A stretch of DNA of 63,533 nt, filler included, from Reclinomonas americana ATCC 50394 (Eukaryota), in assembly GCA_048213135.1 (NCBI GenBank). It is 6 parts of 3 records of this genome, joined end to end, with 100 filler letters (N's around TTAATTAATTAA, not from the genome) between each part and the next. Parts side by side here need not be neighbours in the genome. Positions count along the whole stretch, not along the records: positions 1 to 14,182 come from PS015025.1; positions 14,283 to 22,439 come from PS015026.1; positions 22,540 to 43,796 come from PS015026.1; positions 43,897 to 54,762 come from PS015026.1; positions 54,863 to 61,481 come from PS015026.1; 1 more part is not named here. One strand, 5' to 3'. The translations under genes and the position numbers were made by a program. Position 1 is the stretch's first letter; every line of letters begins with the position of its first letter. Of this stretch, positions 2,331 through 61,481 are shown in pieces. Below the pieces are notes generated by a model. It ran no database searches and was not told where the DNA came from. It was given only the letters and a program-made list of their open reading frames with translations.

Positions 2331-3018
2331 CTACACACATGAGCAAGACCACCTACAACTAACAGCGACCACAAGTGAAGGCACCTTCAACACTCGCGCA
2401 ATGAGCGCCACATCGTCATCACCTCTGTCGTCGTCGTCGTGCTCCACCGATCGTCTCTTCTTCGCTCTTCTCTCTCCCTGTCCGTCTTCCTCCAGTTGCT
2501 CCACCGTCTCTCGGATCACGGCAGCAGCAGAGGACACCACGCATGACTCGGTGAGCTGCGGATTGTCGCGCAGTGCGGCCGATAATCTCCACAGTCGCTG
2601 CCCTCACGACTCAGACAGGAGGAGAGTGGAAGGCGACGACGACGACAATGATCACACCTCTACAGCAGCACGTCGCGCCTTTGCCCGCAACAACTCGCGC
2701 TCCATGCGATGCACCTGCACGCGCAATGCACCGATCTCACCAGAATCTTCTTCTTCTTCCTCCTCCTCGCCACCCGCCTCCTCCTCCACATGCTGCGCCA
2801 CTCGCTGCAGCATGTCGTCACTGAACCGCGCTGCACATGCACGCTCCACGTGCTGGTGCACTGCACCGGACTGATCGTCAGTGTGTGAACAACTGGCCAT
2901 CGAGCGCGCGCACGCAACAGGCGTCCTCTGCGTGTCGCACGTCGCCCGCACTGCCCGTGACATGCTGCAGTGCGTACCGCTGCAGAAGCACGCGACGGGC
3001 CTCGCACAGCGCGTCCAT
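2331..3018 (-). CDS. Hypothetical small acidic/coiled-coil protein
   Basis: Exons 3018-2919, 2860-2658 and 2597-~2331 splice in frame (MDALCEARRVLLQRY...EEEAGGEEEEEEEDSGEIGALRVQVHRMERELLRAKARR). The 3' end is uncertain. Confidence 0.55.
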
Positions 3019-3106
3019 GGAAAGCAAGAGCGAGCATTATTGTCACACACACTTCTTTTGTGGCTGCGTGACACGCGTGCACACACACGCACACACACGA
3101 GTGGTC

Positions 3107-6100
3107 ATGGAGGGCGACTACTCCGACCTGGTGTTGCCAGTCGCGCCACTGGTGGCGCTCTTTGGCAAGCCAGGCCTGAGTTCGAGTGTGGCCATGGCGC
3201 TCTCCTCCTACGCACACCCGGCCTCTGCAGCTGCTGGCGCCTCCTCGTCGCCACAGCTAATGGTCTCAGGCAGTGGCCTCATGTCGTCCTCCTCAGTGTC
3301 ACTGATGAGTGCGGCACACACGGCGTCGGAGGCACTGGATGCGGCCTCGTCTTCGTCGTCCTCTGCCACTGCAGCCTCGTCGTCGTCGTCGCTGCTGGCG
3401 CGACCACCGCGCTTCTATTTTCGCTCGCTGGAGGTGTCAGATACTCTGCCGTACAGAAAGGAGGTGATTTTTGATTGACGATTCTCAAACACAACACTCG
3501 CTAACACTCCCACCCGCACACTCGTGCACACTCGCAGCCGAAGCGCGTGTATGAGGCACCGTTGCATGGACGCGGCATTCTCAAGCGCGGCTGGTTGAGA
3601 AAACGACTGGTGAGAGCGTGGCATTGACTCGCTTGTGTGTGTGTGTCAGATGACTGATCACACTTGCTGTCGCACCAGCAACTGGAGCCGGCGGTGATTG
3701 CCGTGGTCACCGACGTGGACCGCAACTCATTTGTGCCGCGTGAGGCCGAGCTCGTGCAGCATGTGAGCACGCTGAAGGCGCGGCATGCCAATCGACCCAA
3801 CTTGCTGCTGTGCGTGGTGTTTGTGTACACGGGCGAGTTTGCCGACATCAAGACGTACGTCAATGCGTTCCGTCGCAAGGTCTGTGTCGCCCCCTCCCCC
3901 TACCGTTGCGTGAGCNNNNNNNNNNNNNNNNNNNNNNNNNNNNNNNNNNNNNNNNNNNNNNNNNNNNNNNNNNNNNNNNNNNNNNNNNNNNNNNNNNNNN
4001 NNNNNNNNNNNNNNNNNNNNNNNNNNNNNNNNNNNNNNNNNNNNNNNNNNNNNNNNNNNNNNNNNNNNNNNNNNNNNNNNNNNNNNNNNNNNNNNNNNNN
4101 NNNNNNNNNNNNNNNNNNNNNNNNNNNNNNNNNNNNNNNNNNNNNNNNNNNNNNNNNNNNNNNNNNNNNNNNNNNNNNNNNNNNNNNNNNNNNNNNNNNN
4201 NNNNNNNNNNNNNNNNNNNNNNNNNNNNNNNNNNNNNNNNNNNNNNNNNNNNNNNNNNNNNNNNNNNNNNNNNNNNNNNNNNNNNNNNNNNNNNNNNNNN
4301 NNNNNNNNNNNNNNNNNNNNNNNNNNNNNNNNNNNNNNNNNNNNNNNNNNNNNNNNNNNNNNNNNNNNNNNNNNNNNNNNNNNNNNNNNNNNNNNNNNNN
4401 NNNNNNNNNNNNNNNNNNNNNNNNNNNNNNNNNNNNNNNNNNNNNNNNNNNNNNNNNNNNNNNNNCCTGCCCATTGCGCGCCAGACACGTCCACAGCTTG
4501 AAGGCGATCCACTCGGAGCACGAGGCCACCTCCAACACGGGATAGCGCTGCTCGGTGGCCATCTGCTTCACAAAGTCATAGGCGTACGTGTAGTTCTTGA
4601 TGGCCGTCTGCAGGTCCATGCGCAGCTCGGCGAGGAAACCCATTTTGAAGCGATGCCTTGTGAGCACGTTGTTGAGACGCGCCTTGGTGAGGTCGCTTCT
4701 GAACTTCTTCAGGCGCTTCGTCTCGTTCTTCGAGTACGACGTCACCGCGTCGGTGAAGGCGCGATCCAGCTTGCGCAGCTCATTGGGATCCGACGCGTCC
4801 AGTCGAAGCCACACGCAGCGCTCCTTGGCCAAGTCGACCTGCACGCGTCGACGCATGTGACACACCACNNNNNNNNNNNNNNNNNNNNTGCGTGTGGAGG
4901 TAGAGCGAAGACAACTGTGTGTGAGTGCGTTTTCCAACCATCTTTTCCCCCACTTCATTGCGCAGGTGGAGCAAGCGCTGAACTTGTTCCGTTCGCAAAT
5001 GCGTTGGTACAAGACGCTGGTGTTCCCGCGACCGCTGCGATTTGTGCAATTGTCGCGCATTGCTTCGCAGTACGAGCTGATGAATCGCACCATCCTCTCG
5101 CTGCCGAAGCAAGCCCGCATCTCGTACGATCGGTATCAGCAGAGTGTGTTTTACTTGCAGGTGAGATTGAGATGGGGAGTGAGGAGGTTGCTGTTGTTGC
5201 GACGTGTTGGCTAACTCGTGCGCTCGCCTCCAGGCCATTGCCAACTACCGCCGCAAGCACCGTGACGAGTTCATGCAGCTGGAGCGCGACTACCACGCTA
5301 GCCTGTCGTACTACATTGCCAGCAGTTCGCCGTACCACGCCTGCGAGGTCAAGGTCGGCATCTACACCGGCCAGTACTTTATCGTGTCGAACGACCCACT
5401 CTCGCTCCGTTGCGTCCATTGGGGAAAATATTTCTCGTGTGTGTGCTGCGTCTGTCGTCCGAGCTGAACCGTCGATGCGTTGTGCAGGCGATGAGCCGTT
5501 CTCGGTGGCCGTCAACGACCACATGCATGTGCTGCTGAATCACATGCTGGAAATGGATTTCTCCCAGCGCGTGCTGCGCGCTCTGAACGACGCCTACGAG
5601 GCACTAAAGGCGCGCACCACTGGACGAGTGCTGTACAGCATTGCATGCGGAGTGGCGGATGAGCACTTTCTGAAGGGCAATTTTGCCGAGGCCAAGACGT
5701 TGCGTGACATTCTTTGGTTTCGCCCAGCTGCTCCTCCTCGTGTTTGCTGAATTTTTTCGTCGCTTGCACAGTCTGTACGACCAAGTGGTTCCGCTGTACA
5801 GACGAGAGAAATTCTTCTCGATTCTGCGCCGACTGTTGCTGCGTGTGAAGCGATGTACCGAGGTGCTGGAGGAGCCGCAAGATTATCTCGCCACGTTGTT
5901 GGATCTCGTCAGCGACAGTTGCGTCTGTTGACTGTGCGTTGTTGTCGCGGCGGCGCGCAGAGTGGACTGACATGCACTCTTGCTCTTGTCGTGACAGCCG
6001 AGTTGGCGGATGGTGACGAGCGTCTGCGCTATTTGAACGAGTTGTTGCAGGCGGTGCGTGACGAGAGAAAGAGAGAGAGAGAGGAGAGAGTGAGGAATGT

Positions 6101-10124: not shown

Positions 10125-11450
10125 GACGCCGATGTGGAGTCGACTCGAAGGTCCAGAAGGGGCAAGGGCAAGCCGAACTATGTGTTGGAGGCGCGTGCAC
10201 TAAAGGCAGCTGCCATCAAGGCTTCGCGGCAAGAGGAGGAGTTGGAGGTGGAAGCCGACGAGTCCGATGACTCTCTGAGCAGTGTCGCCTCGGATGGTGC
10301 GTCTCTCGTGTGATTGACGCAACTCGCATGTGGCGCTCATTGTTGCGGGTGACAGATTTCATGCCATTTGATGTCAAGGCCGCCACCAAGGCCAAGATTG
10401 CCCGCCGGTTATCCAAGGAGTCGGCGGAAGCGGCCAAGGAGGAGGAGAAGAAGAAGAAGAAGGAGAAGACGAAGAAGGCGACCGTTGTCAATGGCAAGGG
10501 CAAGCAGGCTGTGGCGGAGGAAGATGCGGAGGAAGACGAGGATGAAGATGAGCACGAGGTGGAGGACGAGGAGGACGACGAAGACGCCGAGATGGACGCT
10601 GAATTCAAAGATGATGATGACGACGACGACCAGTTTGACGATGAGGAAGGCGAAGATGAGGAAGAGGAAGACGAGGAGATGGCAGCCGGGGACGATGGCG
10701 AAGACCATGGCGATACCGTTAGCAACGGTGCCAGTGCTGCCTCGGAGGGTGTTCGGGTGCGTGCTACTCGACCCTGTTGCCGAGTGAATCACTTGATGCT
10801 CACCCCTCGTCCTCCACAGCTGTTGACACCTCGCGATTTTGCTCTCCTCAAGAGGCTACGACTCCGCCGCGATATGGAACGCGTGGGTGGCAAGCGTGGC
10901 AACAGCGAGATCGAGGGAGAGGGCGCCTCCTTGTCGACGTGCGTCTCGCTTTGGTATTCTTTGCATTTGTCGTCGGAGTACTGACTTGTGTGACACGGAG
11001 CAGTTTCTCACGAGGAACGGAGACCGTGAACCCCGATTCGCTGGAGACGGCTGCCAAGCGACGAAAGACTAAGGAGGAACGCATGGCTCTGCTGGCAGTT
11101 TCGTTACCTTGCATGGTCCTTCCTCTACGTGTTTTTTTCTCATGTGATTTGGTGGTCACAGGAATCCCGCGAAGGCCGCGAGAGCTACGGCTCCAAGAAG
11201 CGATGGCGCGTGCGTGGCAGCTTGACCAACAAGGAAAAGGTCAAGAACAAGCCCTTCATGCAGCTGCGCAACAGCCGCACCGTGCGCGCCAAGCTGCGCA
11301 TGTCTATCGGCGAACGTGCGGTGCGTGTGTTCTTTGCAAAGGCTTCTTGCACTTTTGTCTCCCATCTTTCTCACTCTCGCGTTCAACATGCAGGCCAAGC
11401 GTGTCGAGAGCGAGCGCAAGCAGTCCAAGTTCCAGCAGAAAGTCAAGTAA
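10125..11450 (+). CDS. SDA1: SDA1 (ribosome biogenesis), C-terminal exons on an inverted contig
   Basis: Acidic tract followed by LLTPRDFALLKRLR, KRRKTKEERMA and GSLTNKEKVKNKPFMQLR, the SDA1 C-terminal motifs. Stop at 11448-11450. Confidence 0.88.
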
Positions 11451-11488
11451 TGATGGTAAAAACGAGTGCGATTCGATGGGCGGATTTA

Positions 11489-11822
11489 TCATTGACGGTG
11501 ACCGATCTCGGCATCGGGCTGTGCGGGGAACACAAAGACGGCACGCTTGCCACCGAGAGCGCGTGCAGAGCTGAATACTGGGAACAGAGTGCCAGCATTG
11601 GCGGCCACGGTCTCTGTCTCACAAGAACGAGAGATGAAATGAGAAGTGGATGAGCCAACAAACGAGAGCGAGTGCACGCAACTCGGCGATCCCGGCAGCG
11701 GTGGTGTGACGTGTGAGCGCACAAACACCGTCACCGCCGGCAGCTGGCAAAAGCCTGGTACGATCGGAATGAGCGTGAGCGTCTGCGTGCAGCTGGACAT
11801 GGGGACCATGTGCCAGCGACGC
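11489..11822 (-). CDS. TRAPPC11: TRAPPC11 terminal exons on an inverted contig
   Basis: TLTLIPIVPGFCQLPAVTV...AVFVFP is a typical TRAPPC11 C-terminus and follows FLVSGTKR|gt at 9918 once contig 10088-11850 is flipped. Confidence 0.75.
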
Positions 11823-12201: not shown

Positions 12202-14150
12202 ATCATCCGAGTGAACAACGTCCACCCAGCCTTCATCCTCCTCATCACCGTCCATGTCCTCATCCGAGAACCCATCAGCATCGTCGCCATCATGCATACC
12301 GTGCTCTGTGTAGAATACCAGTCAGTCAGTGAGAGCGTGAGGTAAACTTCTCTGCTCCACTGCATACGCACCAGCCTTGTACTTCTCCAGCAGTTGAATG
12401 TCGTCCAGCAGCGACGAGCTTGCCTGTGCAGTGGAGCCGTACACTGGCTGCTTCTCGAGATCAACATCACGTCCCTGTCCGCACAAAATCGTCAGCGAAA
12501 AGGCACCGGTGGAAAACGAGACCTGGTGGTCGACACGCACCCGATCTTTGCGTTGCAAAAGTGACGGATTGACGGTGCGGAAGAGCTGCAGCAACGACCT
12601 CGCCGCCATCACCACGCCTTTGTTCTTGTAGTTGCGGTAGCCGACGAGATCTTGCAGCAGCACGGCCTCCATGACCAAGGGCTGGCGGGCGGAGATTTCA
12701 CGAATCGTATTCAACCTGCTCCACAGTCAGTTCTCTGCACAGCGCACGCACAACGCTGTCCCATGCACAATTGACAAACCCCAATGCAATGACTTCGGGC
12801 ATGTTGCGGTCCACGACAAACTGGTTGGCAATCGTTTGCACCAACGGTAGCAGCGTGTCGGAGGGCACCAGCGAGTGCGTGGCCTGCACGGTGCACGCCA
12901 TCAACTTGGTGACATCTGCGCGTGGAGTGAGGGAGAGCGGCAAACTATAAACGCACACACAGACACGCACGCAACGTTCTTGTGACGGCGAGAGGTACTT
13001 TTGCAGGGTGGAATAGAACGGCAAGAGGATCAACTCGTGGCTGCCAATGAGACGCGAGATCAGATCCAGGTACAGCAGGCGCACTTCGAAGCCGTCTTTG
13101 CTGCTCTTCAGGCGACCAAACAGCTTCTCCGCAAACTCTGTGTGTGTGTGCGTACAGTGAGCAGTGCGCGAGTCACACAAGAACTCGGTGCAGGCACGCG
13201 ACGAAACTCTGCGGATCATGCAGCAGCTGGATGGCCGACTGATTCACCGTCGGAGCCTTGACCTGGCGAGCACGGCGCTTGACCTGTCATGCAGAAAAAA
13301 ACTTTGAATCACACGCGACAAGCTACCTTTCTCTCTCTCTTTCTCTCCACACCACACAAACACACCTGCCCCATGGCACGCCGCAGCCGCGACTCCTTCT
13401 TACGCGTCATCTTCGAGCCGACACTGAACGAGCGCATCACATCGGCAATGGCCGCGCCGCTGTTGACCTTGCTCGGCTCATCATCGTCGTCATCATCGCT
13501 GCCGTCGTGCTCCTTGTGCTGCGCGGCCGCATCGGACGAGCCGAGGAAGAAGTGCAGCGCAGCCACCGTCACACGCGCATGCGCCGAGAAGCACGCATCG
13601 CTAATGACCGCCACCGATCGCTCATCACACCACACTTGCCGCTTCCACAGCTCCAACACGATGCGCAGGCACGTGTGCGCCTGCTGCGGATGATCCTCCT
13701 CCATCACTCGGAAAAACGGGGCTTGCAGCGCGCGGTTCAGTCGCGTGTCTTTCGAGTGGTGATTGATGCGGCTAATGTCGCTGACAATGTGCGCGTGCAC
13801 CTGCTTGCGCACGTTCTTGTCGCTGAGCTTGAACAGCGGCAGAATGACTGGCGTGCGCACGTGAGACTAGAAAGAGAAATGAGAGAGAGGCCTGGGGAGC
13901 ACGAAACTCGGCAGGATCGTCTCCAGACTCATCATCTTGCGATTGCGCAGCATGAGGAGGTTGGTGACCACAGCGCGGCGTGTTGAGCCACACATCAAGT
14001 CGGCCTTGTCTGTCAGCAGCTTGTACAGCTGAGGCCGAGAATGATGAGTCCATGAGTGAAGAGAGAGAGAGAGAGAGAGAGAGCGAGACAAGTGCGCACC
14101 ATCTCTGGCAACTTGGCGGCCCACTCGTGCTTCTGAAAGTGCGGCGCCAT
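12202..14150 (-). CDS. SDA1: SDA1, N-terminal and central exons (5' end lost in the gap)
   Basis: LRNRKMM, LELWKRQVWCDERSVAVI, AIQLLHDPQKFAEKLF, LNTIREISARQPLVM and [31 protein letters not shown] are hallmark SDA1 motifs. Confidence 0.92.
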
Positions 14151-29311: not shown

Positions 29312-29947
29312 GATGTGGAAGAGTGGAGTCCAGATACATTGCCCGCCACGACGATGAGATTGCGGAGCTGGAGGAGAAGCGACGAGGCCGTCTGCCGCTC
29401 ACTGCACGCGAGTCACTGTTGCGGGAGCAGAAGCGTGCAGAGGAGGCAGCGTGCATGCGACGAGACTTTGGTGCGCAGTGTGTGTCTCTTCGAGTATGTC
29501 GATCTCCGCCGCTGAAGTGTGTGTGCGATTGCAGAGTTCCCCGATGTGTTCTCCAAGGCTCGCCTGCGCGACTTTCTGTTGCGTCTCTTTCGTTGTCGTT
29601 GTTGTTGGTCCCCTGATCTCTGGTGGCTGACGTGTGGGTGGAGAGCAGGCTGTGGGACGGGAAGCCGACCAAGGTCGAATCGTTCAAGGTGATCAAAATG
29701 GGCTTCGCGGCCGCCGACGATGGCACCGACGACGACGACGATGCCGACGGGGAAGCTGCTGGTGAAAAGACGCCGATTGCGTCGGTGTGTGTCTCTGTGT
29801 CTGTGTATACGTGCGCGATGGCGCCTCGTCTGTCTGTGTGCTGACCGTGTGCTGCAGTCGGCGACATTGTCTCTGAGTGGCACCGATCCGAACAAGCCGA
29901 GTCCGTTTGGGAGCAGGAAGATGGAGGTGACAGCCGCTGCTGAGTGA
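28950..29947 (+). CDS. TMA16: Translation machinery-associated protein 16
   Basis: VHPRSRNARYISSQVHHQQKLKKQR, DKFLWLQQ, YIARHDDEIAELEEKRR and LWDG match the Tma16 pattern. Multi-exon. Confidence 0.8.
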
Positions 29948-44597: not shown

Positions 44598-47500
44598 ATG
44601 GATGTGCAGCTGCCACCACGACCCAAACGCAGCAGAAAGGCGTGCACATGATCGCTCTTTTTCTCCTCACACACTCGCACTCTCTGTCTCACACTCGTGC
44701 ACAATGACAGCTCTCCGATGTGCTTCGCCAAGTGCCGCAGTTGCCGAAAGACGGCCGTCTGCTCCTCAATGTCAAGGAGCTGGGCACACTTGACGACATT
44801 TCAGCGGTATGTGTCTGTGTTTGTGTGTGTGACACTCTCTCTCCCCCGTCTGTCATCGATGATCATGCATTTCGATCATATCAGTTCCCGCGCGAGTTTC
44901 GCGCCGTGCGATGGCTCGGCATGTCGCAGAATTTGCTGACATCGCTGCAGGGCATCGAGCAGGTGCACTGGTCACCCTTTGCTGTGCGTGTCTGTCTGTT
45001 TGTGTGGTTCTCATCGCTCGTCGCAGTTTTCGCGCGTCGAGTCGCTGAGCTTGTCGTTCAATCAGTTGTCTGACTGGGCGGAGCTCGATCGCATCCCAAC
45101 GCGCGCCACCCTCAAGCGCATGTCGTTGGAGGGCAATCCGTTGTCGTCGCACCCCGATTGTTGCGTCTGTTGTGCCGACTGTGTCACAGGTCGATCACAC
45201 ACGCTCAAAAATCCTGCGCAGATCGCTACATTGTCATTGGCATCTTCCCGCAGCTGGTGGAGCTCGACGGCAAGCCCGTGTCGGCGGTGGAGCGAGCGGC
45301 GCTCGGTATGTCTCGCTCATTTTGCACGCTACTTGTGTGCGCGGCGCTCCGTTTGCCCATCCGCGGATTGTTGAACAGAGGACGGAGTGGCGTTGCAGCG
45401 CGAGTTCTTGGGCTGGTGGCGCGAGCGATCGAATGGTACGCGTGTGGCGTGCATGGCTAACAACGAGTGGTGCATCAGCTCACTCTGTTCCGCTTCTCTT
45501 CTCGCATGGCAGAGCTCATCTTTCTCAGTCAGTACTTTGTCAAGACGGTGGTGTGTCTGGAGCTTCTCGATCGCTTCAACCCGTTCAAGATCGCCGGTGA
45601 CATTAGCGCCTACTTGCCGCCGCCGCTGGAGATGAACGATGCACACATTGCGGTAGGAGTTGTGCTCGTTCTCGTTTCATGCTTTGCTGCCTCTCACATG
45701 GCGCCAACAGCACGGAAAACTGGCGGCAGCCATTACTCCTGGGCAGGTTCTCGAGTTTGTGCGCACGCACGGCGGAGTGCATGCGCGCAGCTTGGGAGGC
45801 GTCATCACTTCGCGTGATGTACTGCATGCCATGGAGCACGAATCGTTCCCGTCGCTGACGCCTGCCGAGTCACTGCAAGAGTTTGAGGTCGGCGAGAACT
45901 CGATGGACGAACGTGGTTTGACAGCTGACCCCTCTCTCTGCACACACACACACAGGGTAAGATTCGCACTCTGCGCGCGTACCCAGAGAACGGAATGGCC
46001 ATGTCGGTGGCCTTTCGCGGTCGTCCTACCGTGCAGTGGCCACTGCCGTTGATGGAGTCGGCGGCGGGTGTGCACAGTCGACCGAGTGCTGACGAGGTGA
46101 CGCCGATTCTGCACATTGGCGATCGGCGGTTCATGCATGCTACGCTCGCCGCTGCTCGGAATCTGCACGCGCGACTCATCCATGCGCGAGGCCTGGTGGA
46201 GGAGCATCACCGGCGACACGAAGAGAAAGTGGTCTGTATGTTTTCATTTGGATGAGTGATGTGCGTAGTCCACTCACTCTCTTGGTACAGCAAGCCGATC
46301 TGCGTCGGCGCACAGTGCACCAGCTTCCCTTTCAGTGTGGCGTCTGCAAGGCTGTCACTGATCGGCACACAGAAGGCATGTGTGTGTGTCATAGGGGGAG
46401 AGAGACAGAGTTTTTAACTCTTGATTCGCAGTCGTTCTTGGTCAACAACTTGGTACCGACGACTCGCAGCACGTGTTCAATGTCAGTCGAGAGGACGAGG
46501 CGTACGCAGTGCCGACGCTCGTGACTTGCTCGTGCGACTGTGTGGAGATACGGTATGCTCTTTCGCAGTCCTCTGTTTATTTCCACCCGACCTCATCGCG
46601 CGCACGCGCAGGAACTATCGTCACACACTGGAGCAGTATGAGCAAAAGATGGAACTGTGCGAGTTGTTGATGAGAGCCAAGGGTTCGTGCATCATCCGTG
46701 AGGCTCCAGTGGCGCCGTCGGTTTGTTGACACTCGCCTGCGCAGGCATCCGACATGAGACCATCGCCGCGGAGAAGCGATCCGTTGCCGAGGTGCTCACT
46801 CAGCAGTTGCAAGAGCAGCAACTGCATTGCGTCGAGTTGGAGCGCACATGTGCAGACCTGGAGGCAGAAATCAGTCGACTGCGCGCACAAGTGCAACAGC
46901 TGCAGGATGTTGATGTGCGTTGGATGCGGGGAAGTAAGGGCGGTAATTTTCGTCTTGTCCTCACCACTCGCACATCTCGCAGTCGTTGAAAGAGACGGCG
47001 CACAAACGTGCACTGGCACAGAGCGCAGCTGTGATTGAAGACGCCAAGGCGCAGCTGCGGCAAGTGGCGCGTGACAGTGTCGCGAGTTGTGTGGTGCACC
47101 TCCTTGCTGTGCTCTCTCGTGCACCACCGCTCACATTCTTCGTGATGTGTGTGCAGAGCGACTGGACAGTCCTCCGCGACGCTCTCCGCCAGCCGACAGC
47201 GTCCGAGAGGCCTCCAAGCGTCCACTGTCGCAAGCGAGTGCTGCTCCGCGTGCTGCCTGGGAGTCGCCACCGCGAACTCCACCACGCAGTCGGCTGCTGG
47301 GCGGCGAGCAGTCGTCCACGTTTATGCTGTCACCATCCGAGTACGATGGTTGCGTCTCCAGTCGCCTATTTCACACTGTGTGGTTTCCGTTGCTGAGCAA
47401 CAATACAGGAAGTGGCATTGGAGGCTACCGACCTCCGCCAGCGTCGTCCGGTGGCGCTGTGGGATCGCGGCTCCTCGAGCGGGAGCTGTTGGGCGAGACG

Positions 47501-48794
47501 TCGTCGAGTCCGGTGGCCAAACTGGATTTGATGATGAGCGACCTGAAGCAGAGAAGGCGCGCCGCGCTGCTGGCCATTGAACCGCATCCAGCCACTCAGC
47601 GCGTGCGCGAGGCCAAGGCCGACCGCTTGCGCAATCGACAGTTGCAGCAGAGATTTCTTCGCTTCTGGCGTGCGCAATTGTACAAGTCTGGCGGGCGCTG
47701 GCGCAAGGCAGTGGTGCGCTCCACCGTCGTCGTGACCGCAGCGTGCAGTGGGAGCGAAACTTAACCTCCTCTTCTCTCTCTCCATCACCCACAGCAACAC
47801 GAGCGAGGGAGGCGGCTGCGCAAGACCTTCAAGATGTGGCTCGATGCTTGCCGACTGCGACGATTATTGTCGGTGCTGAAGCGGTCAGTGGGGGTCCGCG
47901 AGAATGGGTGTTTTGTGCGGGAAAGAGGAGAAGCTCACTAAACTTGCAGGGTGCATCGGCTGAAACTGCTTCGACGTTCGTTTGCTCGCTGGCGGGGGCA
48001 CACCTCGTTCTCCATGTCGTCGACTGCGTCAGCTCGCTCTCTCCCGTCGTCAAGGTTGCGTTTGTGTTTCTTTTCATGTCCACCCTCTGCCGTTCATGTG
48101 AATGACCGCGTGGAGTACAGGATCGAGTCGTTGATATCGCATTCACCACCCGTGCGGCAGCCGAGGCCAGACGATCGTCTGCTGGCCAGCTCTCCCTCCA
48201 GTTGCGCATCGTACACTCTCCTCTGCGTACTTGTGATTCGTTGCACTGATGTTTGAATGATTGGAGCAGGTGGGCGAGCAAGGCGATCACGGTCGGTGCA
48301 GTCGACCGCCAGCGACATGTGGGCATCGGCTCCGCGACACACCAGTCCACAGTCGCACACGCGCTCTACGAGACCGACAGGCGGCAGACATTTGGTTCTG
48401 CAACCTGGCGACAAGCCCGACAATCTGCTGCTGGCCGCCGAGGATGCCGCTCATCGCTACACACCTCGTTGCGTGCACTCAGTAGACTGCGGAGACGCAA
48501 CGGGGTGTGCGCGCCTAACCTTTCATGAAATATACAGAAACCACGGCTACGCAGCGCACGCAGACTCCGGAGCGCAGCAGGCAGGCGCTGTACCAGGTGC
48601 CGTACGATCAGACACGTTTGGCGATCCCGGATATGCAGCCGTTGCGCCTTGAGGAATCGGCACGCCGTTCACTGCGACCACCGTCGTCGAGGTTAAGCAA
48701 GGGCAGCAGCAGTAGCAGCAGTGGTACCGGCGGAGGAGGAAGCAAGGTGATGCAGAAGACACGTTCTTTTTGTGTCTTCCGACTATCCAGCTGA
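44598..48794 (+). CDS. SDS22-like LRR + LRRcap protein with coiled coil and Trp/Arg-rich (Sfi1-like) C-terminal region
   Basis: LGMSQNLLTSLQGIEQFSRVESLSLSFNQL..LEGNPLSSHPDYRYIVIGIFPQLVELDGKPVS, later QRFLRFWR and RRSFARWR. First and last exons are uncertain. Confidence 0.72.
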
Positions 48795-48901: not shown

Positions 48902-50347
48902 CTATGCGGCCCGTCTACTGATGCGCAAAAGCGCTGGATAACATCGCTCAGTGTCGTACGCCGCCGCTGTCTCATCTCCCGCCTCCTTGCGCTCCAGCAA
49001 CTGTCGATGCAGCGCAACGAGATCCTCATCAAAGTCGTGCTCCACCTCCACCGCAAACGCAGCTCCCGCACCCGTCGTCGTCGTGAACTCCAGCAGCCGT
49101 TCCAGGAAGAGCTCTCGTGTGCCATCGCGACTCGGTGCATACATCCATGCCTCCCCGCTGACCGACAGCAGTGCGTCCAGCGTCTTCAACAAGTCCGCAT
49201 GGTAGTCGCGGAAGAACAGGCTGCGTGGGAGAGATCAAGTCAGCTACTGTGTGCGCTGATTCATGCAGAGACACACAAATCGCACCAGTCGGCACACAAA
49301 ATCAGGTCAAACGCATGGAGGTGCTCCGGTGGTGGCTCGTCTTGCCACGGCAGTGTCGCACAGGTGCACTGTACCGCGCGTCACCACCGATGTTGGCACA
49401 CGAGACGGCAAAGAGCGTGTATGCAAAAACGCAACTTCGGTGCTTCCAAACTGGTGCGCATTGGCGGCGAGGTTGAGCTGCATGGCTGCAGGACCATGTT
49501 GAAGAGAGAAGGAAGAGAGAACAGAGGGCAGAGCAGCAGCCGCAACTCTCCAACACTCGCGGGTTGCCGTCGGTCAAGTGCACCGAACGCGCGTCAGAGA
49601 CAACTGCACTGACGACACCGGCCAAAGCCACGCCAGCGCCCAACTCGCACACACGTTTGTCGCTGTCCATGTGTGCGGCGTGAGGGCTTGTGGTTGAGAA
49701 GGAGGAGGCAGGGGGCATGGAGGCAAACCTCAGCAGATCTGCGTGCTTTTCAATGTAAAACGCCATTACTTCCTCCGATGGCCACAAGCCTGCGATCGCG
49801 TGGCATGTGAGTGGGTTGGCAATGCAAGCGAGAAGAGGGGAAAGCGACACTGACCAACGTTGCCGGTGTTGTCCACGCCGGAAGCAGACGACACGACGAA
49901 ATCGGAGACGGTTACCGACTTGCGCTCACTTGTGTGTGACAACAGGAGTGAGCGACGACCAGCGACAGTGGACACAAACAACGCGAGAGACGACCAAGAC
50001 TGAACTGCAGAACAATGTGTGCGCCACACTGCAGCGACACGCACGATGCGTGAAAGCGCGCTGGTTCCAGAGACTCGGCTGACAATGGGGCACAGATGGT
50101 GAGGGACACAATGAGGGTACTCTCTCTCTCTCTCTCCCCATCACACTCACTCACCAGGCTCGACTGGATACAACTGGTACGAGCGGAAACGATCTGCATT
50201 TTGCGAGTGAGCATGGATGCGCGCGTGTGTGGGAGAGGAACAGCGATGATGGTTCACACCTTCGCTGGCGGCATCGCGGGTGTTGGTCTTGCGTCCACGC
50301 GTCACAAACGAGCGCAGTCGTGCCCATCGCTGCTTTGCATCGCTCAT
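48902..50347 (-). CDS. CAMKMT: Calmodulin-lysine N-methyltransferase
   Basis: AKQRWARLR, GVDNTGNVGLWPSEEVMAFY, KRVCELGAG..VHLTDGN and CYPALLRI. Confidence 0.9.
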
Positions 50348-52137: not shown

Positions 52138-54640
52138 ATGGGTGAGAGCACACGCGTCGCCACTCACTGCTGTCTGACTCTCATGTGCTCTCTCTCTCTC
52201 TCTCTCTCTCATACGCAGGTAACCTGTGCAGTCGACTGTGCGGATCGCGATCGTCGTCTGCATCGGCGCCCAGTCGACGACGATCGTTTCTGGGAGTGGC
52301 CGGTGATGGCGGTGAGGGACGCGAGTTGAGTCCTGTGCAGCGACGTCGACGCGGAGGCAGCGGCAGTGCTGCGGGCGATGATGATGATGACGAGTCGTCA
52401 AGTGCGTCTGTTTGACTGGTGTGATATTTGTGCGTTGTTGTTGACTGTGTTGTTTGTGCAGGTGATCAGGGTGCGACTGTGTTTTGCAGTGCGTGTGTGT
52501 GTGTATGAGTGTGTTCTCATGTGTGCTTGCGCAGTGATGCATATGCAGCGGGATGATGTGGAAGACATTCGCCGGGAAACGCTTGGTGTGTCTCTGTCTG
52601 TCTGTGATCGAACGCGTGTTTGAGTGTTGCTCATCAGTTCGCGTTCACAGTGGCGATGCAGGTTACAAAGATCCGCAGTCAGGTCATGCATCGCTTGCCA
52701 GTGGAGCCGACTCGTTTCGCATGGATTTCGTCTTCATTTGCATGCATGTGATTGCTTTGCTGGCTGTCTAACTTGTGCTTTGTGTGTGGATAGCGGACGG
52801 CGAGCTGTTGCGGCTTGGTCGCGTCCAGCACGACCACTGTGAGTGGCTCGTCAAGATCGTCGGCGGGTCGTCGATATACAAGATGATCGAGGTGCAGGGT
52901 GAGTAATTTGGACAAGATCGATTGTTGGCGATTGCTTTTTCGGTGCTCACGCTTCGCCACACAGACAACGCCGCTGGTGATGCGCTGATTGATGCGCTGG
53001 CCGACATTGTGCCTCTGTGCGCGGGCATCAAGAGTCTGCGAGTCAGCGGTGAGTAGATTGGCTTGCTTGTGATCACGTCGCCCCAACTGATCTGCGATGC
53101 TCGACAGGGCGAGGCGCCGGCGATCGGTCACTTCGACGGCTAGCGGGCGCCCTGGAACGCAACCCGACAGTGGAAACGTGCACCGTGTCTCGTTGCGTGA
53201 ACACTCACACCTGGCAAAGAACCAAGCGTATTCACGCATCTTTTTCTTCGTTCCCCCGTGGCCAGAGTCGAATGCGAGCGATGCCACCGTTGTCGCCTTT
53301 GGTCGAGTCTTGGCCACACATCCAGCTCTTGTCAGCGTCAGCCTTAAGGGTTCGTGGTTGATACAGGAGAGTGTGTGTTCCTCCCATGAATTAAACAGTG
53401 GTATCTCCTGCAGACAACACGGCAGTGACTCCGGCGAGTGCGCCGGCGCTGCTGGATGCTCTGCTCGGTAATCCGCGATTGGAGACTGTCAACTTTAAGA
53501 GTTGTGTCTCGGCGTCGGTACAGTCGACAGTGCCAACTTGTTGGTCGCTTATTTTGGTGTGTCACACAGGAGCAAGCTCGAGTCCCCTGCCGCTGCAGTA
53601 CACGCCGCCGGTGGCCGACGAACTTCGGCGGGTGGCCGACGCCGTGTGGGCGCATCCACGACTCAAATTCTTTATGGGACACCAGCTCACGATGCTGGCA
53701 CAAATGGCCAACGAGCCTACTCTGACGTTGCTTCGTTGCGTTCTCCTCTGTGTGCGGTGACCGGAGCAAAATAGTTGCCTGTGTGCTCATCTCTCTCTCC
53801 TTGGCAGGTGCATGCGACGATTTGGATCTGGCGCTGATTAGTTCGCGCATGGCGCAAGGCGAGGCGCAGACCAAGTCTGTGAAGCTGTCCGGTGAGCCTA
53901 ATGTGCAACGAGATGGCATGGTGGTCGTGAGAGCTTATTATTACTGGTGCAGGTCCACTCACCGACGCCGGTCTGGAGCTGCTGGGTTCCGCGTTGCGCG
54001 CCGTCACCACTCTGTTCCTCATCAGTTTTGTGCACCAGCGCTGCTTGATATCATCCTCTTCCTTCTCCCTGTGCTAAATAATGCGTGTATGTGCGACAGC
54101 GTGCGGCATCTCGAGTGGCGGACTGCGTGCGGTGGTCGCTCATCAAGTACGGCTGCAGACGCTGCGAGATTTGTGCATTCACGGTGTGCCGCGATGCGCT
54201 GTTTGTGCTTTCGATGATGCTGGTGTCTCACACATTCAATGTGCGTGCAGACTGCCCGGACGTTGGCGATGCCGGTGCGGAGGCCATTGCGCAACTCATT
54301 AGCGAATCAAGTGCATTCTCGCGACTGCAATTATCGGGTGTGCACACCCAGATCGCCTCTTGATGTTTGCGAGTGGGCTGCTCACGTTGCTTGCGCATGG
54401 CAGGATGTGGCATTGGCGACCGAGGTGCACGGGCTCTCGCACATGCTGTGGCGTCATCGACGTCGCAGGTGACGCATGTGGATCTGTCGAGTTGCGTTCT
54501 ATTCTGTCGTGCTTTCACCGTCTCTTCTCCTGACGTTGTGTGGGCGACAGGCAACCAAATCACTGTTATTGGCATGGGTGAGTGGCAGCAGACCACAAAG
54601 AGTGACCCGGATACGCTGGAGTGGCTGGGGCTGGCGGGTG
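52138..54640 (+). CDS. RNI-like LRR protein with predicted N-myristoylation/palmitoylation motif (3' end in the gap)
   Basis: ATG G|intron|GT AAC gives MGNLCSRLCG. LRRs DVGDAGAEAIAQLI, GCGIGDRGARALAHAV and VDLSSNQITVIG. Confidence 0.7.
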
Positions 54641-55020: not shown

Positions 55021-58000
55021 ATGCTTCGCGCGGTGGCGTCGCGCGTGCACGACATCTTCACGTCGTCGCTATCGACGGTGTTCCAGCGCGGCTCGTCCTC
55101 TGCATCGACCGCGTCCACAACCGCGACATCGCAGCGCGCCATCACCGCCACCCCCAGCAAACCGATCGCGCCTGCTGCTCCCTCTCCACCTCCACCACCA
55201 CCTGCGCCTTCACCATCGTCCTCCTCCTCGCTATGGAGTCGATTGTGCTCGCTGGTGGCGCGCTGGCGGTGGCGATCTGACAGTGAGATGGCCAGCACAG
55301 AAACCACCATCGCCACCGTCGTCGTCGCAGAACCGGCATCGCCTGTGCGCAAGGTGGCCACTGCGGCAACGAACCGCGTGCGCGCACTCCTCTTGCGCCC
55401 CTCTGCCGGTGAGTGTGAAGAGTGTGTGTGTGAAGATTTTTTGTCAGTTTTCAGCGCGCCGAATCTCGGAATGTTCATTTTCGCGCGCGCGACTCCATCT
55501 CTCACACGTGTGTGTGTCTCGTTTGACGTGCAGCGGTCGGTTCCGTGGTCCAGCCGGTGCCGGCGGTGACTCCGGTGTTACCCACCGCCACGTCATCGGC
55601 GTCGTGGTTTTTGCGACGCCTGTTTCTCTTTTTACCGGGCGGAGGAGGTGGAGGTGGAGGTGGTGGCGCATGGTCTTCATCGATGTCTGACAAGACGACT
55701 GTCGTCAGTCAACAACAACAACAACAGCAACCGGTAGCGATGCCGGTGCCGTTGAACGCGTCGCCGGCGCGATCCACCGGTGGACTTCATGTTTCCGTTG
55801 CGTTTCTTTCACTCGGTCTACAGTGGTTTTTCCGCGTTCATTTGTTGTTGACTGTGGAATGGTGCTCGCAGTGGCGCTACGTGTTGGACGGAACGCGTAC
55901 CATGTTTTCTGGTGCTTACGGGCTGCTGCCGTCGGTGGCTGGTCCTGTGCGGAATGTTGCGTCTTGTTGTGTTTTGGTCCCGAGTCGCGTATGTGTGTAA
56001 ACCAACATGTGTTCGTGCGTGGTTAGTTGATGCGTCTATCGGAGCCAGTGGTGTACGCGCGCTCGTTCCCACACACGCGGTCATTGTTCCGCGATCTGGA
56101 TATCGATTGGTTGCATCCACCGCGCATGTTGAGTGCAGTGTCGATCGCGACCGTGTGTATTGTTGGTCACCACTAACACGCACCACTGAGCAGGTTGGTG
56201 TTTGTGGGCAAGCGTCCGCTGCAGGGCGAGTTCCACTACATTCGCTCCGGTACGCCACTCGCCGTGTGTGACGAGGTGTTTGTGACTGCTGACGCTTCTT
56301 TCCGCCCAGTGCTGCGATTTGTCAATGCGGAACATGTCGGCGTCAAGCTGATTGGTGCGTCCCCCTCGTCGCCTGACCAACGCACTGCACGTGATGTATT
56401 CTTAATTCAAGCTGTCTCGCGTGCAGTGTTCGATCGCTCCGTCTTTGGCTGGCGATCATCGCGCGTGCTGTACTTTGACTTNNNNNNNNNNNNNNNNNNN
56501 NNNNNNNNNNNNNNNNNNNNNNNNNNNNNNNNNNNNNNNNNNNNNNNNNNNNNNNNNNNNNNNNNNNNNNNNNNNNNNNNNNNNNNNNNNNNNNNNNNNN
56601 NNNNNNNNNNNNNNNNNNNNNNNNNNNNNNNNNNNNNNNNNNNNNNNNNNNNNNNNNNNNNNNNNNNNNNNNNNNNNNNNNNNNNNNNNNNNNNNNNNNN
56701 NNNNNNNNNNNNNNNNNNNNNNNNNNNNNNNNNNNNNNNNNNNNNNNNNNNNNNNNNACCGCGGCGACAGGTAATGCCGCAGCCAGCCAATGTATCCGCC
56801 ACCCAGTGCATCGGTGCGCTCGCGACGCGCCGCCAGCTGTCGTTCCTGCACGAAGGCGAGCATCTGCTCCACCGACGCGCGACCATGCTGACGCGTCGCA
56901 TTGCGCACAAACGAGGCGATGAATCCCGGCGCAATCTCATCACCCGTCAAAACTGCAGAGTCCACACACAGTGAGTGAGCAGAGAAGAGAGAGAGAGAGA
57001 GAGAGAGAGCAACGCAACACTCCACAAGAGCCGACGAGTAATCGCGGCAGTCGTTGCGGCCGAGACTGTACACTCCCGAGGTCTTCATGTAGGTGCTGTT
57101 GAAACGCTTGACATCGTTCAACGTGCGGTTCGGTCTTGCCGCGCCCACAAATGCCCACTCCTCGGGTTCCAGACGATTCTGTTGTGCGCCACAATGCCAG
57201 TGTCAACGCAAGAAGAAAAACATAAGAAGCGCACAGGCTGGGGGCAAGCGGAGGTCACCTCTTGCACTTTGGCCATCACATCACCGGCGAGCTTGCTGAA
57301 ATCGCCAGCCAGTGCCGGGAGGNNNNNNNNNNNNNNNNNNNNNNNNNNNNNNNNNNNNNNNNNNNNNNNNNNNNNNNNNNNNNNNNNNNNNNNNNNNNNN
57401 NNNNNNNNNNNNNNNNNNNNNNNNNNNNNNNNNNNNNNNNNNNNNNNNNNNNNNNNNNNNNNNNNNNNNNNNNNNNNNNNNNNNNNNNNNNNNNNNNNNN
57501 NNNNNNNNNNNNNNNNNNNNNNNNNNNNNNNNNNNNNNNNNNNNNNNNNNNNNNNNNNNNNNNNNNNNNNNNNNNNNNNNNNNNNNNNNNNNNNNNNNNN
57601 NNNNNNNNNNNNNNNNNNNNNNNNNNNNNNNNNNNNNNNNNNNNNNNNNNNNNNNNNNNNNNNNNNNNNNNNNNNNNNNNNNNNNNNNNNNNNNNNNNNN
57701 NNNNNNNNNNNNNNNNNNNNNNNNNNNNNNNNNNNNNNNNNNNNNNNNNNNNNNNNNNNNNNNNNNNNNNNNNNNNNNNNNNNNNNNNNNNNNNNNNNNN
57801 NNNNNNNNNNNNNNNNNNNNNNNNNNNNNNNNNNNNNNNNNNNNNNNNNNNNNNNNNNNNNNNNNNNNNNNNNNNNNNNNNNNNNNNNNNNNNNNNNNNN
57901 NNNNNNNNNNNNNNNNNNNNNNNNNNNNNNNNNNNNNNNNNNNNNNNNNNNNNNNNNNNNNNNNNNNNNNNNNNNNNNNNNNNNNNNNNNNNNNNNNNNN

Positions 58001-60730: not shown

Positions 60731-60930
60731 TAAGTGATGATCATGAAGTGTTTCATGTGTTCGTGATTGCACCTCCGGATCCACGAAAGTAGTACCACAG
60801 TCAAGCAGCAGCAAACCGAGTCCTATTGCTCATCCAACATCATGTCAGCGTCAGCAACGGTGGCGTTTCCTCTGCTCCTGCAACGTTCACAACGAAATTG
60901 CGCGCCATTTCGTGATCGATCAATCACACA

Positions 60931-61481
60931 ATGTTTGCTCATCGACGAGCCTTCTTCACCGCCGACGTCCCTGCTCGCATCTCTGATGCGTGGGGTGCGT
61001 AGCCTTCCCCCCCTTCTATCTCTCTCGCTCTCTCCGCATCAGTCGTTCACTTTCCTCTCCGCATCAGTGTCCAAGGGTGGCGACCGAGTGAGCAATGCCG
61101 CTGTCGCCTCCCTCGTGTTTGCCGCCAGTGATAACGAGCTACGCAGTGAGCCACTCAAGCAGTTTCGCTCTCTCCATTCTCTCACTTCAATGCTGTGTGT
61201 GCGTCTCTCTCACACGTTCTCTCGCACTTTCACCACAGACTCGTCGAGCAGGAGTCTTGTGTGGTCTTCAACGCCACGTGGGTGGAGGATGCGATTCTGC
61301 GAACAGAGAGCGCTGGTGCCGGTGGGGGAGTGCGGTTTCCGCCACTCGGCAGCTACATCATTCCGTATCGCGGCGACGGCAATGCCTGGTCGCGTTACAA
61401 TCCTGGGGATCCGCAGGTGGCGCAGGATTTGGCCGACGACCGTGTGCGACGTGCCAAGCAGGTAGCTGAGCTGGAGAAGAA
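60931..61481 (+). CDS. TERB2-like BRCT-domain protein (3' end at the gap)
   Basis: Exons 60931-60994, 61068-61161 and 61239- give MFAHRRAFFTADVPARISDAWVSKGGDRVSNAAVASLVFA..VVFNATWVEDAI..PLGSYIIP. Confidence 0.65.

Follow-up and report, generated by a model that had tools for sequence, protein, structure and literature searches.

N/GTTGCGT, a common second 5' splice-site signal among predicted introns of a Reclinomonas americana genomic window

The introns predicted in the window, which is the whole 63,533-nt stretch of GC-rich Reclinomonas americana ATCC 50394 DNA that was analysed (assembly GCA_048213135.1), have two donor signals. As modelled, N/GTTGCGT (the slash marks the exon-intron boundary) is a real and common second signal beside the main class G/GTGCGT, and is used by about one intron in six. 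The class is abundant beyond independent position frequencies, resembles the remaining introns in its 3' features, and yields proteins free of gaps at most of the junctions compared with homologues. A/GTTTCGT and GTTGAGT are its relatives. Compared with the main-class heptamer, GTTGCGT has the second base changed and is cleaved one base upstream.

All intron calls are computational predictions. They were made with a donor-blind gene model, which requires only GT..AG and scores coding potential, acceptor, branch, length, and the intron content that follows the initial 8 nt. The window itself served as training material for its models of coding potential, length, branch, and acceptor. Introns of at most 130 nt with both flanking exon scores of at least 5 constitute the high-confidence set. 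The real sequence gave 217 predicted and 65 high-confidence introns, compared with 35 and 2 for a reversed-sequence decoy. GTTGCG is the commonest donor hexamer in the high-confidence set, being observed 12 times in 65 against 0.60 expected from independent position frequencies (binomial p 1e-12). Its share is hence 18% of these introns, and 14% (24/167) of all donor-blind predictions on assigned strands. The sequence-only reading had estimated 10-20% of introns, which agrees with these computational calls. Among the 7863 GT-hexamers on both strands, GTTGCG occurs 74 times, and 26 of the 74 are predicted donors, whereas the proportion for GT sites overall is 217/7863. GTTGCGT is also biased toward the sense strand (27 sense, 3 antisense in the 38.7 kb with assigned gene strand). 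The donor-blind enrichment, the decoy, and the homology described below indicate that GTTGCG marks a genuine and major class of predicted introns in the window.

The sequence-only reading had listed 21 GTTGCG donors. All 21 have the string on the strand given, 18 have T at +7 (exceptions 33566, 37611, and 49546), and 19 have a last exon base other than G, as it had claimed (exceptions 47349 and 48055). Seventeen were predicted donor-blind, ten of them with high confidence (Table 1). Those at 33566, 48055, and 55956 were predicted only by a donor-aware model, whose support is circular. The site at 37611 was rejected as a donor: it lies inside a standard intron, 31 nt before the acceptor, and its use would leave a 31-nt intron, while the G/GTGCGT donor of the standard intron joins two in-frame coiled-coil exons (..RREIE and DMESEG..). 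Among the related donors, GTTTCG at 11098, 13207, and 61162 is high-confidence, and GTTTCG at 52714 and GTTGTG at 53501 are predicted with weak flanks. Further GTTGCG members, two of which are high-confidence, and one further GTTTCG donor were found beyond the list.

Table 1. Predicted introns and candidate sites of the GTTGCG class and its relatives. HC, high-confidence; DB, predicted donor-blind; DA, predicted only by the donor-aware model; new, beyond the list of the sequence-only reading; LRR, leucine-rich-repeat. In the text, sites are named by donor position.
Position	Strand	Donor sequence	Length (nt)	Phase	Call	Remarks
2861..2918	-	GTTGCGTG	58	1	HC	
5409..5487	+	GTTGCGTC	79	1	HC	TRAPPC11-like gene
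5699..5771	+	GTTGCGTG	73	2	HC	TRAPPC11-like gene
5918..5997	+	GTTGCGTC	80	1	HC	
11098..11161	+	GTTTCGTT	64	0	HC	GTTTCG; SDA1 C-terminal part
11614..11682	-	GTTGCGTG	69	1	DB	candidate; weak, flanking exon scores near zero
12716..12779	-	g/GTTTGTCA	64	2	HC	GTTTGT; SDA1; Pfam profile 332-335 contiguous
12916..12975	-	GTTGCGTG	60	1	HC	SDA1
13138..13207	-	GTTTCGTC	70	1	HC	GTTTCG; SDA1 (HDPQ-K-FAEKLF)
13848..13907	-	GTTTCGTG	60	1	HC	new; GTTTCG; SDA1; Pfam profile 58-62 contiguous
29578..29648	+	GTTGCGTC	71	2	HC	new; TMA16-like gene
30965..31031	-	GTTGCGTG	67	0	DB	outside high-confidence set
33484..33566	-	GTTGCGGC			DA	candidate; ambiguous local gene structure
35229..35286	-	GTTGCGTC	58	2	DB	new
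35423..35489	-	GTTGCGTG	67	1	DB	low flank scores
36563..36628	-	GTTGCGCG	66	1	HC	new
37581..37659	-	gag/GTGCGTTG ... GTAG			HC	standard intron containing the 37611 string
39337..39400	+	GTTGCGTT	64	0	HC	TAG acceptor
39857..39917	+	GTTGCGTA	61	1	HC	
44250..44401	-	GTTGCGTC	83 or 152, by acceptor		DB	donor upstream of CS-domain exon
45160..45221	+	GTTGCGTC	62	1	HC	end of LRR region
47349..47408	+	GTTGCGTC	60	1	HC	-1 is G
48055..48120	+	GTTGCGTT			DA	candidate; flanks of low coding score
48201..48269	+	GTTGCGCA	69	1	DB	new; low flank scores
48468..48537	+	GTTGCGTG	70	1	DB	low flank scores
49369..49435	-	GTTGCGTT	67	0	DB	new; Methyltransf_16 gene
49486..49546	-	GTTGCGGC	61	1	DB	Methyltransf_16 gene; upstream exon has the Pfam match
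52714..52793	+	GTTTCGCA	80	1	DB	weak flanks
53192..53265	+	GTTGCGTG	74	1	DB	new; between two 84-nt repeat exons
53501..53569	+	a/GTTGTGTC	69	1	DB	repeat-unit boundary after 87-nt repeat exon
53735..53807	+	GTTGCGTT	73	1	DB	new; LRR gene; followed by 84-nt unit exon
54491..54550	+	GTTGCGTT	60	1	DB	VDLS-S-NQI
55956..56026	+	GTTGCGTC			DA	candidate
56953..57018	-	GTTGCGTT	66	1	HC	
61162..61238	+	GTTTCGCT	77	2	HC	GTTTCG

Homologous proteins were compared across the junctions. Homology is gap-free at four of the six GTTGCG junctions tested (5699, 12975, 39337, and 39857), and also at the relatives 11098, 13207, and 13907 (GTTTCG) and 12779 (GTTTGT). In SDA1, positions 288, 289, and 290 of the Pfam SDA1_HEAT profile run contiguously across the 12975 junction with exactly one residue at the junction, and a standard GTGCGT 5 nt downstream is out of frame. 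The 11098 junction is gap-free against homologue P0001. At 13207, one of the conserved-motif examples of the sequence-only reading (HDPQ-K-FAEKLF), the spacing of the homologues is matched with exactly one residue there, and the donor outscores a GTCGCG alternative in 7/7 homologues. Of 33 homologues, 31 align better with the donor at 5699 than with a GTTTCG that lies in phase 18 nt further downstream. The 39337 junction (..KKNRD/LESC..) is gap-free against P0008 (..KEDQN LESC..), and at 39857 the window and P0008 alike have ten residues between LQR and V.QAIWSP, the donor scoring 105 against 32 for a GTACAG alternative. The 152-nt version of the intron at 44401 joins an exon with a Pfam CS domain. 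For HPD-Y-RYIVI, a second motif example, homology reaches both exon edges. At 45160, the upstream exon matches solved LRR proteins to residue 43 of 44, and the downstream exon matches a dynein light chain 1 from residue 1. The third example, VDLS-S-NQI (54491), is at a repeat boundary, where the junction restores the repeat spacing, and all three examples are borne out. The donors at 53192, 53735, and 54491 all lie at repeat-unit boundaries of a leucine-rich-repeat gene in which each unit corresponds to one 84-nt exon. Donors of the c/GTTGCG and g/GTGAGT types occupy the same unit boundary and phase in this gene: the 53192 intron has the repeat position and phase of its g/GTGAGT neighbours, and the exon units align in register.

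The two classes do not differ (all p > 0.1) in intron length (65 nt in the GTTGCG class, 71 nt in the others), in GC content, in acceptor score, or in the branch, which has the motif CT[CG]A[CT] and lies 20 nt from the acceptor. On the exon side, G is at -1 in 1 of 16 GTTGCG and GTTTCG donors versus 36 of 49 ordinary donors in the high-confidence set (p 2e-6). The loss of -1G claimed earlier thus stands as a lost preference, but not as a depletion below background (2/26 versus 17.7% at all GTT sites, p 0.3). At -1, GTTGCG donors have A10 C6 G2 T8 (n=26), a composition close to that of the G-poor -2 position in ordinary donors (A14 C14 G3 T13, n=44). GTTTCG donors have A at -1 in 4/4 high-confidence cases, while GTTGCG donors have it in only 10/26; a shifted register should favour A at this position. 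GT[A/C/G]GCG donors are absent among the 65 high-confidence introns, which would be explained by a pairing U at +3 rather than by a generic bulge. Phase 1 accounts for 17/24 GTTGCG introns versus 38/118 introns with another +3 base, and for 14/21 versus 31/108 when the repeat gene is left out. This phase-1 excess is predicted by no register model.

The sequence pattern fits a displacement by one base, which the sequence-only reading had proposed as a U1/U6 register shift or variant snRNAs. We give about an even chance to the reading that the introns of the class belong to the ordinary U2-type GT-AG kind and carry a second, distinct donor whose box is read one base displaced. The main-class box (T)GCGT, at +2 to +6 of G/GTGCGT, would be moved to +3 to +7, and the exon-side G would become dispensable. 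The RNA that recognises the main class, U1 at first and U6 at a later stage, would bind the displaced box, either by a true +1 shift, with G+1 opposite C9 and U+3 opposite A7 of U1, or with a U looped out at +2/+3, and cleavage would still be fixed at GU. We infer both the reading RNA and the register, and lean slightly toward the shift over the bulge. The window has no Rfam hits to U1 and U6 genes. In nearest-neighbour modelling of the duplex with a textbook U1, the GTTGCG class averages -0.76 kcal/mol, near zero in every register, compared with -4.4 kcal/mol for GTGCG donors and -5.9 kcal/mol for the rest. A simple shift on ordinary U1 is hence a weak explanation by itself, and as modelled it does not by itself explain the strong conservation of the heptamer.

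In a different account, a dedicated or altered snRNA would read the class, being either a U1 with a 5' end that differs from the textbook one at positions 5-6, so that +4C and +3G pair, or a second U1 complementary to GUUGCGU. The register would then be an ordinary one or, if unusual, at least stable. We consider this account unlikely, at somewhat more than one chance in five. When the 256 variants of U1 positions 4-7 are ordered by how well they fit the 65 donors, the textbook 5' end comes 101st. The best variant, with G and C at 5-6, gives -6.3 kcal/mol with the GTTGCG class, -12.3 with GTGCG donors, and -7.3 with the remaining donors. Moreover, +4 is C in 24/44 standard donors, a mismatch to textbook U1, and the GTTGCGT heptamer is tighter than that of the main class (T at +7 in 22/26 versus T at +6 in 19/44). 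The U1 5' end is, to our knowledge, near-invariant across eukaryotes. Even the best variant pairs via a shift, a bulge, or an unpaired G+1 (7, 3, and 6 of 16), so a changed U1 would add to the register idea rather than replace it. Humans have variant U1 snRNAs, according to the consulted part of the literature, but GC-rich green algae likewise favour AG/GTGCGT in the consulted part of PMC3879977.

An origin relic is improbable, at around one chance in ten. The motif would come from an intron-generating element or an insertion context with its own GTTGCGT end, and recognition would merely tolerate it. Such a relic would account both for the lack of a preference for -1G and for the surplus of phase-1 introns, and the consulted part of PMC3879977 describes intron-generating repeat elements with typical donor sites in picoalgae. 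However, no element body is seen: when 22 GTTGCG introns are aligned, conservation is confined to positions 1-7 and the final CAG, and mean column identity is 31%. Both donor types occur at homologous boundaries of the repeat gene, which favours a switch of donor type in introns already present over independent insertions, and a relic leaves the reading of the donor unexplained.

It is very unlikely that splicing in fact uses GC-AG sites three bases further downstream (NGTT/GCGT) or other nearby sites, with the class a by-product of frame-based modelling. A 3-nt shift preserves the frame, so frame arguments alone do not decide the matter, and the comparison of GT with GC(+3) in 33 homologues is mixed at 5409 (better 10, equal 11, worse 12) and 5918 (13, 9, and 11). 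The GT donor nevertheless outscores GC(+3) at 12975 (7/7 homologues), 39337 (87 versus 76), 39857 (105 versus 100), and 5699 (28/33). The contiguous Pfam profile at 12975 with its single junction residue, the repeat exons of exactly 84 nt if GT is used, and the GTTTCG relatives without GC at +4/+5 argue in the same direction, as do the enrichment from a donor-blind model and the clean decoy. GCGTNN with T at -1 is, in addition, a poor GC-type donor. Least credible of all is splicing by a distinct system akin to the minor spliceosome, with a 5' box that has diverged: a long and tightly conserved 5' box in the intron, the lack of an exon-side G, and a phase-1 excess are U12-type traits, but GTTGCGT is unlike the U12-type box, branch motif, branch-acceptor distance, acceptor, and intron length are those of the main class, and within a single gene the two donor types replace each other at homologous positions.

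Among known systems, U12-type introns share with the class a bias against phase 0, a long conserved 5' box within the intron, and the lack of an exon-side G; the class is not U12-type, as its 5' motif differs and it has the same branch and acceptor features as the main class. Introner elements also have a shared typical donor and short uniform length, but an internal sequence common to GTTGCG introns is absent and membership was rejected. The main class of the window, with its G/GTGCGT donor and CTGAC/CTCAC branch, resembles Micromonas canonical introns, which have an AG/GTGCGT donor and an NCTGAC branch (PMC3879977, consulted part). That part makes no mention of a GTTGCGT class for Micromonas introns, and gives a branch-acceptor distance of 43-52 bp in picoalgae, compared with about 20 nt in the window.

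Like human shifted-register sites, the class has a GT donor with consensus-like bases one position deeper into the intron. Roca and Krainer reportedly showed the shifted register in human genes in 2009 with suppressor U1s; in the window, the register is deduced from sequence patterns only. At the human sites, every base pair with U1 moves by one position and cleavage stays at GU (consulted parts of PMC4856993 and PMC9311317). Experiments in human cells have established both the shifted and the +2/+3-bulged register, as given in the consulted part of PMC4856993, which supports the register proposal. Human 5' splice sites read in a bulge +2/+3 or an asymmetric-loop register (Roca 2012; Tan 2016; PMC4856993, same part) offer a second likeness, with GUU... 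donors, one U looped out, downstream pairs as in the consensus, and a longer 5' splice site (+7 and beyond). These human bulge sites are a small minority, with 68 (+2/+3) and 51 (+3) among 10,248 predicted non-canonical sites in that part of PMC4856993. The bulge register retains the -1G pair, whereas the GTTGCG class has no -1G preference. Human shifted-register sites are isolated and atypical, whereas the window has a discrete class of 14-18% of predicted introns with a near-invariant heptamer. A donor with its recognition box one base deeper had until now been described only as a human rarity.

Pfam searches on long ORFs of the window identified GPD, histone H3, SDA1, TMA16, a CS-domain protein, Methyltransf_16, SYS1, and LRR proteins. 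As the exons are short and few genes were found in this way, we developed a gene finder of the generalised hidden Markov type. The model is donor-blind, taking any GT as a donor and any AG as an acceptor. A three-periodic Markov model scores the exons; intron scores combine matrices for acceptor and branch with a length prior and a composition term that ignores the first 8 intron bases. All components were trained iteratively on the window itself (57 kb). Early versions overran true donors to later in-phase GTs, as Pfam coordinates revealed for SYS1 (51559 instead of 51589), and the overrun ended once intron content and length were modelled. The final model recovers seven of nine check junctions, both misses (12541 and 12372) being standard GTGCGT donors. 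It predicts 217 introns on the two strands of the real sequence, 65 of which pass a strict filter with arbitrary thresholds (intron of ≤130 nt and both flanking exon scores ≥5). The reversed sequence, a decoy that measures spurious introns and not misplaced boundaries, yields 35 predicted introns, including two strict ones. All results are based on DNA, protein homology, and statistics.

The window has 63,533 bases, is GC-rich, and includes 6,235 N in 26 runs. Five gaps each consist of 44 N, the linker TTAATTAATTAA, and another 44 N, and the linker carries a stop in each of the six frames. It follows that the window was strung together artificially from at least six separate scaffolds, and adjacency across the gaps is meaningless. 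Three small contigs between N runs appear inverted with respect to their neighbours. Residues ~185-280 of a TRAPPC11-like protein are encoded on the minus strand, immediately ahead of further exons of this gene on the plus strand, SDA1 has its C-terminus on the plus strand and its N-terminus on the minus strand, and a gene resembling the protein homologue P0008 has its middle on the minus strand and its flanking parts on the plus strand. A Gly/Thr/Ser/Ala/Val-rich repeat region is open in several frames on both strands and extends across two scaffolds. The Pfam scan of stop-free predicted exons found no match in any exon of the large minus-strand gene, whose C-terminal half may resemble a C2-domain protein of the ciliary transition zone. 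Runs of (TG)n, (CA)n, and (CT)n abound in the introns, and of all GT-heptamers GTGTGTG occurs most often (132 times).

Coordinates of features in the window (a slash marks an exon-intron boundary or separates profile positions)
Position	Strand	Feature	Detail
4466-4868		Small contig	
4494-4853	-	Exon of TRAPPC11-like gene	
10088-11850		Small contig	
12779		SDA1 junction, GTTTGT donor	SDA1_HEAT profile positions 332-335 across junction
12975		SDA1 junction, GTTGCG donor	SDA1_HEAT profile positions 288/289/290 across junction
13907		SDA1 junction, GTTTCG donor	SDA1_HEAT profile positions 58/60/61-62 across junction
14183-14282		Linker gap	
14239-27744	+	Gly/Thr/Ser/Ala/Val-rich repeat region	Very long ORFs (at most 1,751 codons), on to about 28650
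22440-22539		Linker gap	
28511-28648		Weak Peptidase_S74 intramolecular chaperone domain match	Downstream of the Gly/Thr/Ser/Ala/Val-rich frames
30027-38300	-	Large gene	About 40 predicted exons, long coiled-coil N-terminal half
37581-37659		Intron with gag/GTGCGT donor	
40946-41877		Small contig	
43797-43896		Linker gap	
52965-54029	+	RNI-like leucine-rich-repeat gene	One 84-nt exon per 28-residue repeat
54763-54862		Linker gap	
61482-61581		Linker gap	

Among the 65 strict introns, GTTGCG is the most frequent donor hexamer (12), followed by GTGCGT (10), GTGCGC (5), and GTTTCG (4). The sequence-only reading had proposed that GTTGCG marks a major intron class, and its abundance indeed exceeds what independent positions would give, with 12/65 observed against 0.60 expected when the base frequencies of these 65 are taken position by position (binomial p 1e-12). 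The hexamer makes up 74 of the 7,863 GT-hexamers in the window, and 26 of these 74 are predicted donors, compared with 217 of 7,863 GT sites overall. Across the 38.7 kb with an assigned gene strand, sense:antisense counts are 27:3 for GTTGCGT, 25:2 for GTTTCG, and 54:19 for GTGCGT, on a strand map that depends partly on the same coding model as the intron calls. Of the 167 strand-assigned donor-blind introns of ≤130 nt, 24 (14%) start with GTTGCG and 49 have T at +3. In this organism, gene finders trained with one donor matrix will get between a sixth and a quarter of introns wrong.

The individual donors named by the sequence-only reading stood in part. GTTGCG is present on the named strand at all 21 of its sites, the last exon base is non-G at 19 of them as claimed, and T comes next at 18. 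As donors, 17 of the 21 are predicted by the donor-blind model and 10 belong to the strict set. The donor at 37611 was rejected, as it falls within an intron with a standard donor that joins two coiled-coil exons in frame. Three sites (33566, 48055, and 55956) are called only when a two-component donor matrix is added, which makes the evidence for them circular, and the gene structure surrounding 33566 is ambiguous. With this matrix, 25 of the 26 sites named, GTTGCG and relatives together, are called.

We then inspected the donor signature of the T class, whose donors have an extra T at +3. Positions +3 to +7 match the standard consensus at +2 to +6, and the +1G replaces the -1G. The -1G occurs in only one of the 16 strict GTTGCG and GTTTCG donors, compared with 36 of the 49 others (p 2e-6). 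Depletion below background was rejected, because G precedes 2/26 GTTGCG donors against 17.7% of all GTT sites (p 0.3). The -1G is thus rare relative to standard donors and not significantly below the GTT background, which means that the preference is lost and not reversed. The GTTGCG profile at -1 (A10 C6 G2 T8) resembles the standard-donor profile at -2 (A14 C14 G3 T13), and T is found at +7 in 22/26 GTTGCG donors, compared with T at +6 in 19/44 standard donors. Relatives obey the same rule, with GTTTCGT beside GTTCGT and GTTGAGT beside GTGAGT. U is the sole extra base seen, as no strict donor (0/65) has A, C, or G before GCG (GT(A/C/G)GCG). Moving the recognition helix by one base would produce such a pattern.

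An unexpected feature of GTTGCG introns is their phase. In the strict set 9/12 are phase 1, compared with 12/49 (p 0.002); with assigned strands the counts are 17/24 and, for introns without T at +3, 38/118. Leaving out the RNI-like repeat gene gives 14/21 and 31/108. The excess is predicted by no register model. In the repeat gene itself, all introns are phase 1 and lie at one repeat position, and the exon translations align in register. Donors alternate at this homologous boundary, which carries g/GTGAGT, c/GTTGCG (53192 and 53735), g/GTTCGT, a/GTTGTG, and a/GTTGCG (54491).

Homologues or profiles give a gap-free protein with restored frame at eight T-class junctions. Those of SDA1 were checked against seven homologues (26-46% identity) and the Pfam SDA1_HEAT profile, and each of the split codons at 13907, 12975, and 12779 is exactly one profile residue. 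At 13207, a junction that the sequence-only reading considered fixed by the motif HDPQ-K-FAEKLF, the SDA1 homologues agree in having exactly one residue between HDPQ and F/L-A-E. There is no gap at 11098 relative to the protein homologue P0001, and P0008, the sole homologue at 39337 and 39857, aligns gap-free across both. At 45160, homology of the upstream exon to solved LRR proteins reaches residue 43/44, and that of the downstream exon begins at residue 1. The read-through ORF that surrounds 57018 had no match in a PDB search, and metagenome contigs contained no relatives of the SDA1 exon or a 592-aa exon.

The alternative that these introns are GC-AG introns starting 3 nt downstream was weighed by its fit to homologues and rejected. 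For the minus-strand exon of the TRAPPC11-like gene, a word-based homologue search gave no match and an exhaustive HMMER search gave 76 relatives; 33 relatives of at least 900 aa were used for the donor tests. The 5699 donor outscores the GC donor in 28/33 homologues, and an in-phase GTTTCG 18 nt downstream in 31/33. The GC donor also fits more poorly at 12975 (7/7 homologues), 39337, and 39857. The sites 5409 and 5918 are in variable stretches, where the 33 homologues favour neither the GT nor the GC donor. At 12975, the use of a standard GTGCGT 5 nt downstream was rejected, as it breaks the frame and leads into a stop codon.

Apart from the donor, the 16 strict GTTGCG and GTTTCG introns do not differ from the other 49. 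The median length is 65 nt in the T class and 71 nt in the others (p 0.11), the branch-to-acceptor distance is 20 nt in both (p 0.82), and branch score (p 0.52), acceptor score (p 0.78), and GC content (p 0.87) are alike. The T-class branch motifs CTCAC, CTGAC, and CTCAT are those of the others, and CT[CG]A[CT] lies ~20 nt upstream of CAG in both classes. Hence, the T-class introns are ordinary U2-type introns at the 3' end. They fit the U2-type GT-AG class, with GT and AG ends (which the model requires), a restored frame, and a branch site as in the others. U12-type introns, those of the minor spliceosome, are marked by a 5' box of their own and by a branch box that is tightly conserved and lies near the 3' end. 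The T-class 5' motif is presumably unlike that 5' box, and a U12-type class was rejected because branch motif and distance are identical to those of the main class. Nor are these introns copies of an introner-like repeat element, since in an alignment of 22 GTTGCG introns conservation is confined to bases 1-7 and the final CAG, with a mean column identity of 31%.

An Rfam gathering scan of the window returned no RNA genes, snRNAs included. Pairing is described for an assumed U1 with unmodified bases, which makes the output a prediction and not a result. Donor positions -3 to +9 were paired with the textbook U1 5' end as printed in PMC4856993. The predicted mean free energies are -0.76 kcal/mol for GUUGCG, -1.6 for GUUUCG, -4.4 for GUGCG, and -5.9 for other donors. 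For 8/12 GTTGCG donors the best duplex is a partial shifted or 3'-part pairing, for 1/12 it is canonical, and for 1/12 it has a +2/+3 bulge. A bulge of this kind would retain the pairs G+1:C8 and U+2:A7, loop out one U, and let pairing resume downstream. These near-zero energies would make a displaced register on ordinary U1 thermodynamically feeble. Textbook U1 ranks 101st among the 256 variants of positions 4-7 by fit to the 65 donors, and C at +4, present in 24/44 standard donors, is a mismatch to its 5' end. The best variant, with G and C at positions 5-6, is predicted to reach -6.3 kcal/mol for both T classes together, -12.3 for GUGCG, and -7.3 for others, pairing the 16 T-class donors by a shift in seven, a bulge in three, and with G+1 unpaired in six. 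For human U1, a shifted register and a +2/+3 bulge have both been demonstrated (PMC4856993 and PMC9311317).

Tentatively, and with considerable doubt, we suggest that U1, or one of two U1 species, has a 5' end altered so as to pair with the GCGU box, and that the spliceosome accepts this box at either of two distances from the point of cleavage. In consequence, 15-30% of introns (GTTGCGT, GTTTCGT, and GTTGAGT) would be one base off register, devoid of exon-side contact, and marked by a phase-1 preference. The U6 ACAGAGA box pairs with about +4 to +6. For U6, too, the box would come one base late, and the catalytic stage may likewise require a base to be looped out.

The U1 5' end ranks among the most conserved RNA sequences. 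In humans, U1 registers other than the canonical one are known at a small minority of splice sites and were demonstrated minigene by minigene. A genome with one-base-displaced donors in one of six introns would be a natural large-sample system for studying what fixes the cleavage site once the recognition helix has moved and how U6 accommodates an extra base, and would show whether the U1 5' end can co-evolve with donors. Open-access literature searched by motif and concept describes no organism with a GTTGCGT-type donor class. The main class here (G/GTGCGT with a CTGAC branch) is similar to the canonical introns described for GC-rich picoalgae (PMC3879977). The T class resembles human shifted or bulged 5' splice sites, which are a small minority; PMC4856993 has bulge rows of 68 (+2/+3) and 51 (+3) among 10,248 predicted non-canonical sites. 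In the +2/+3 bulge register the -1G is expected to contribute, whereas the T class here has no -1G preference.
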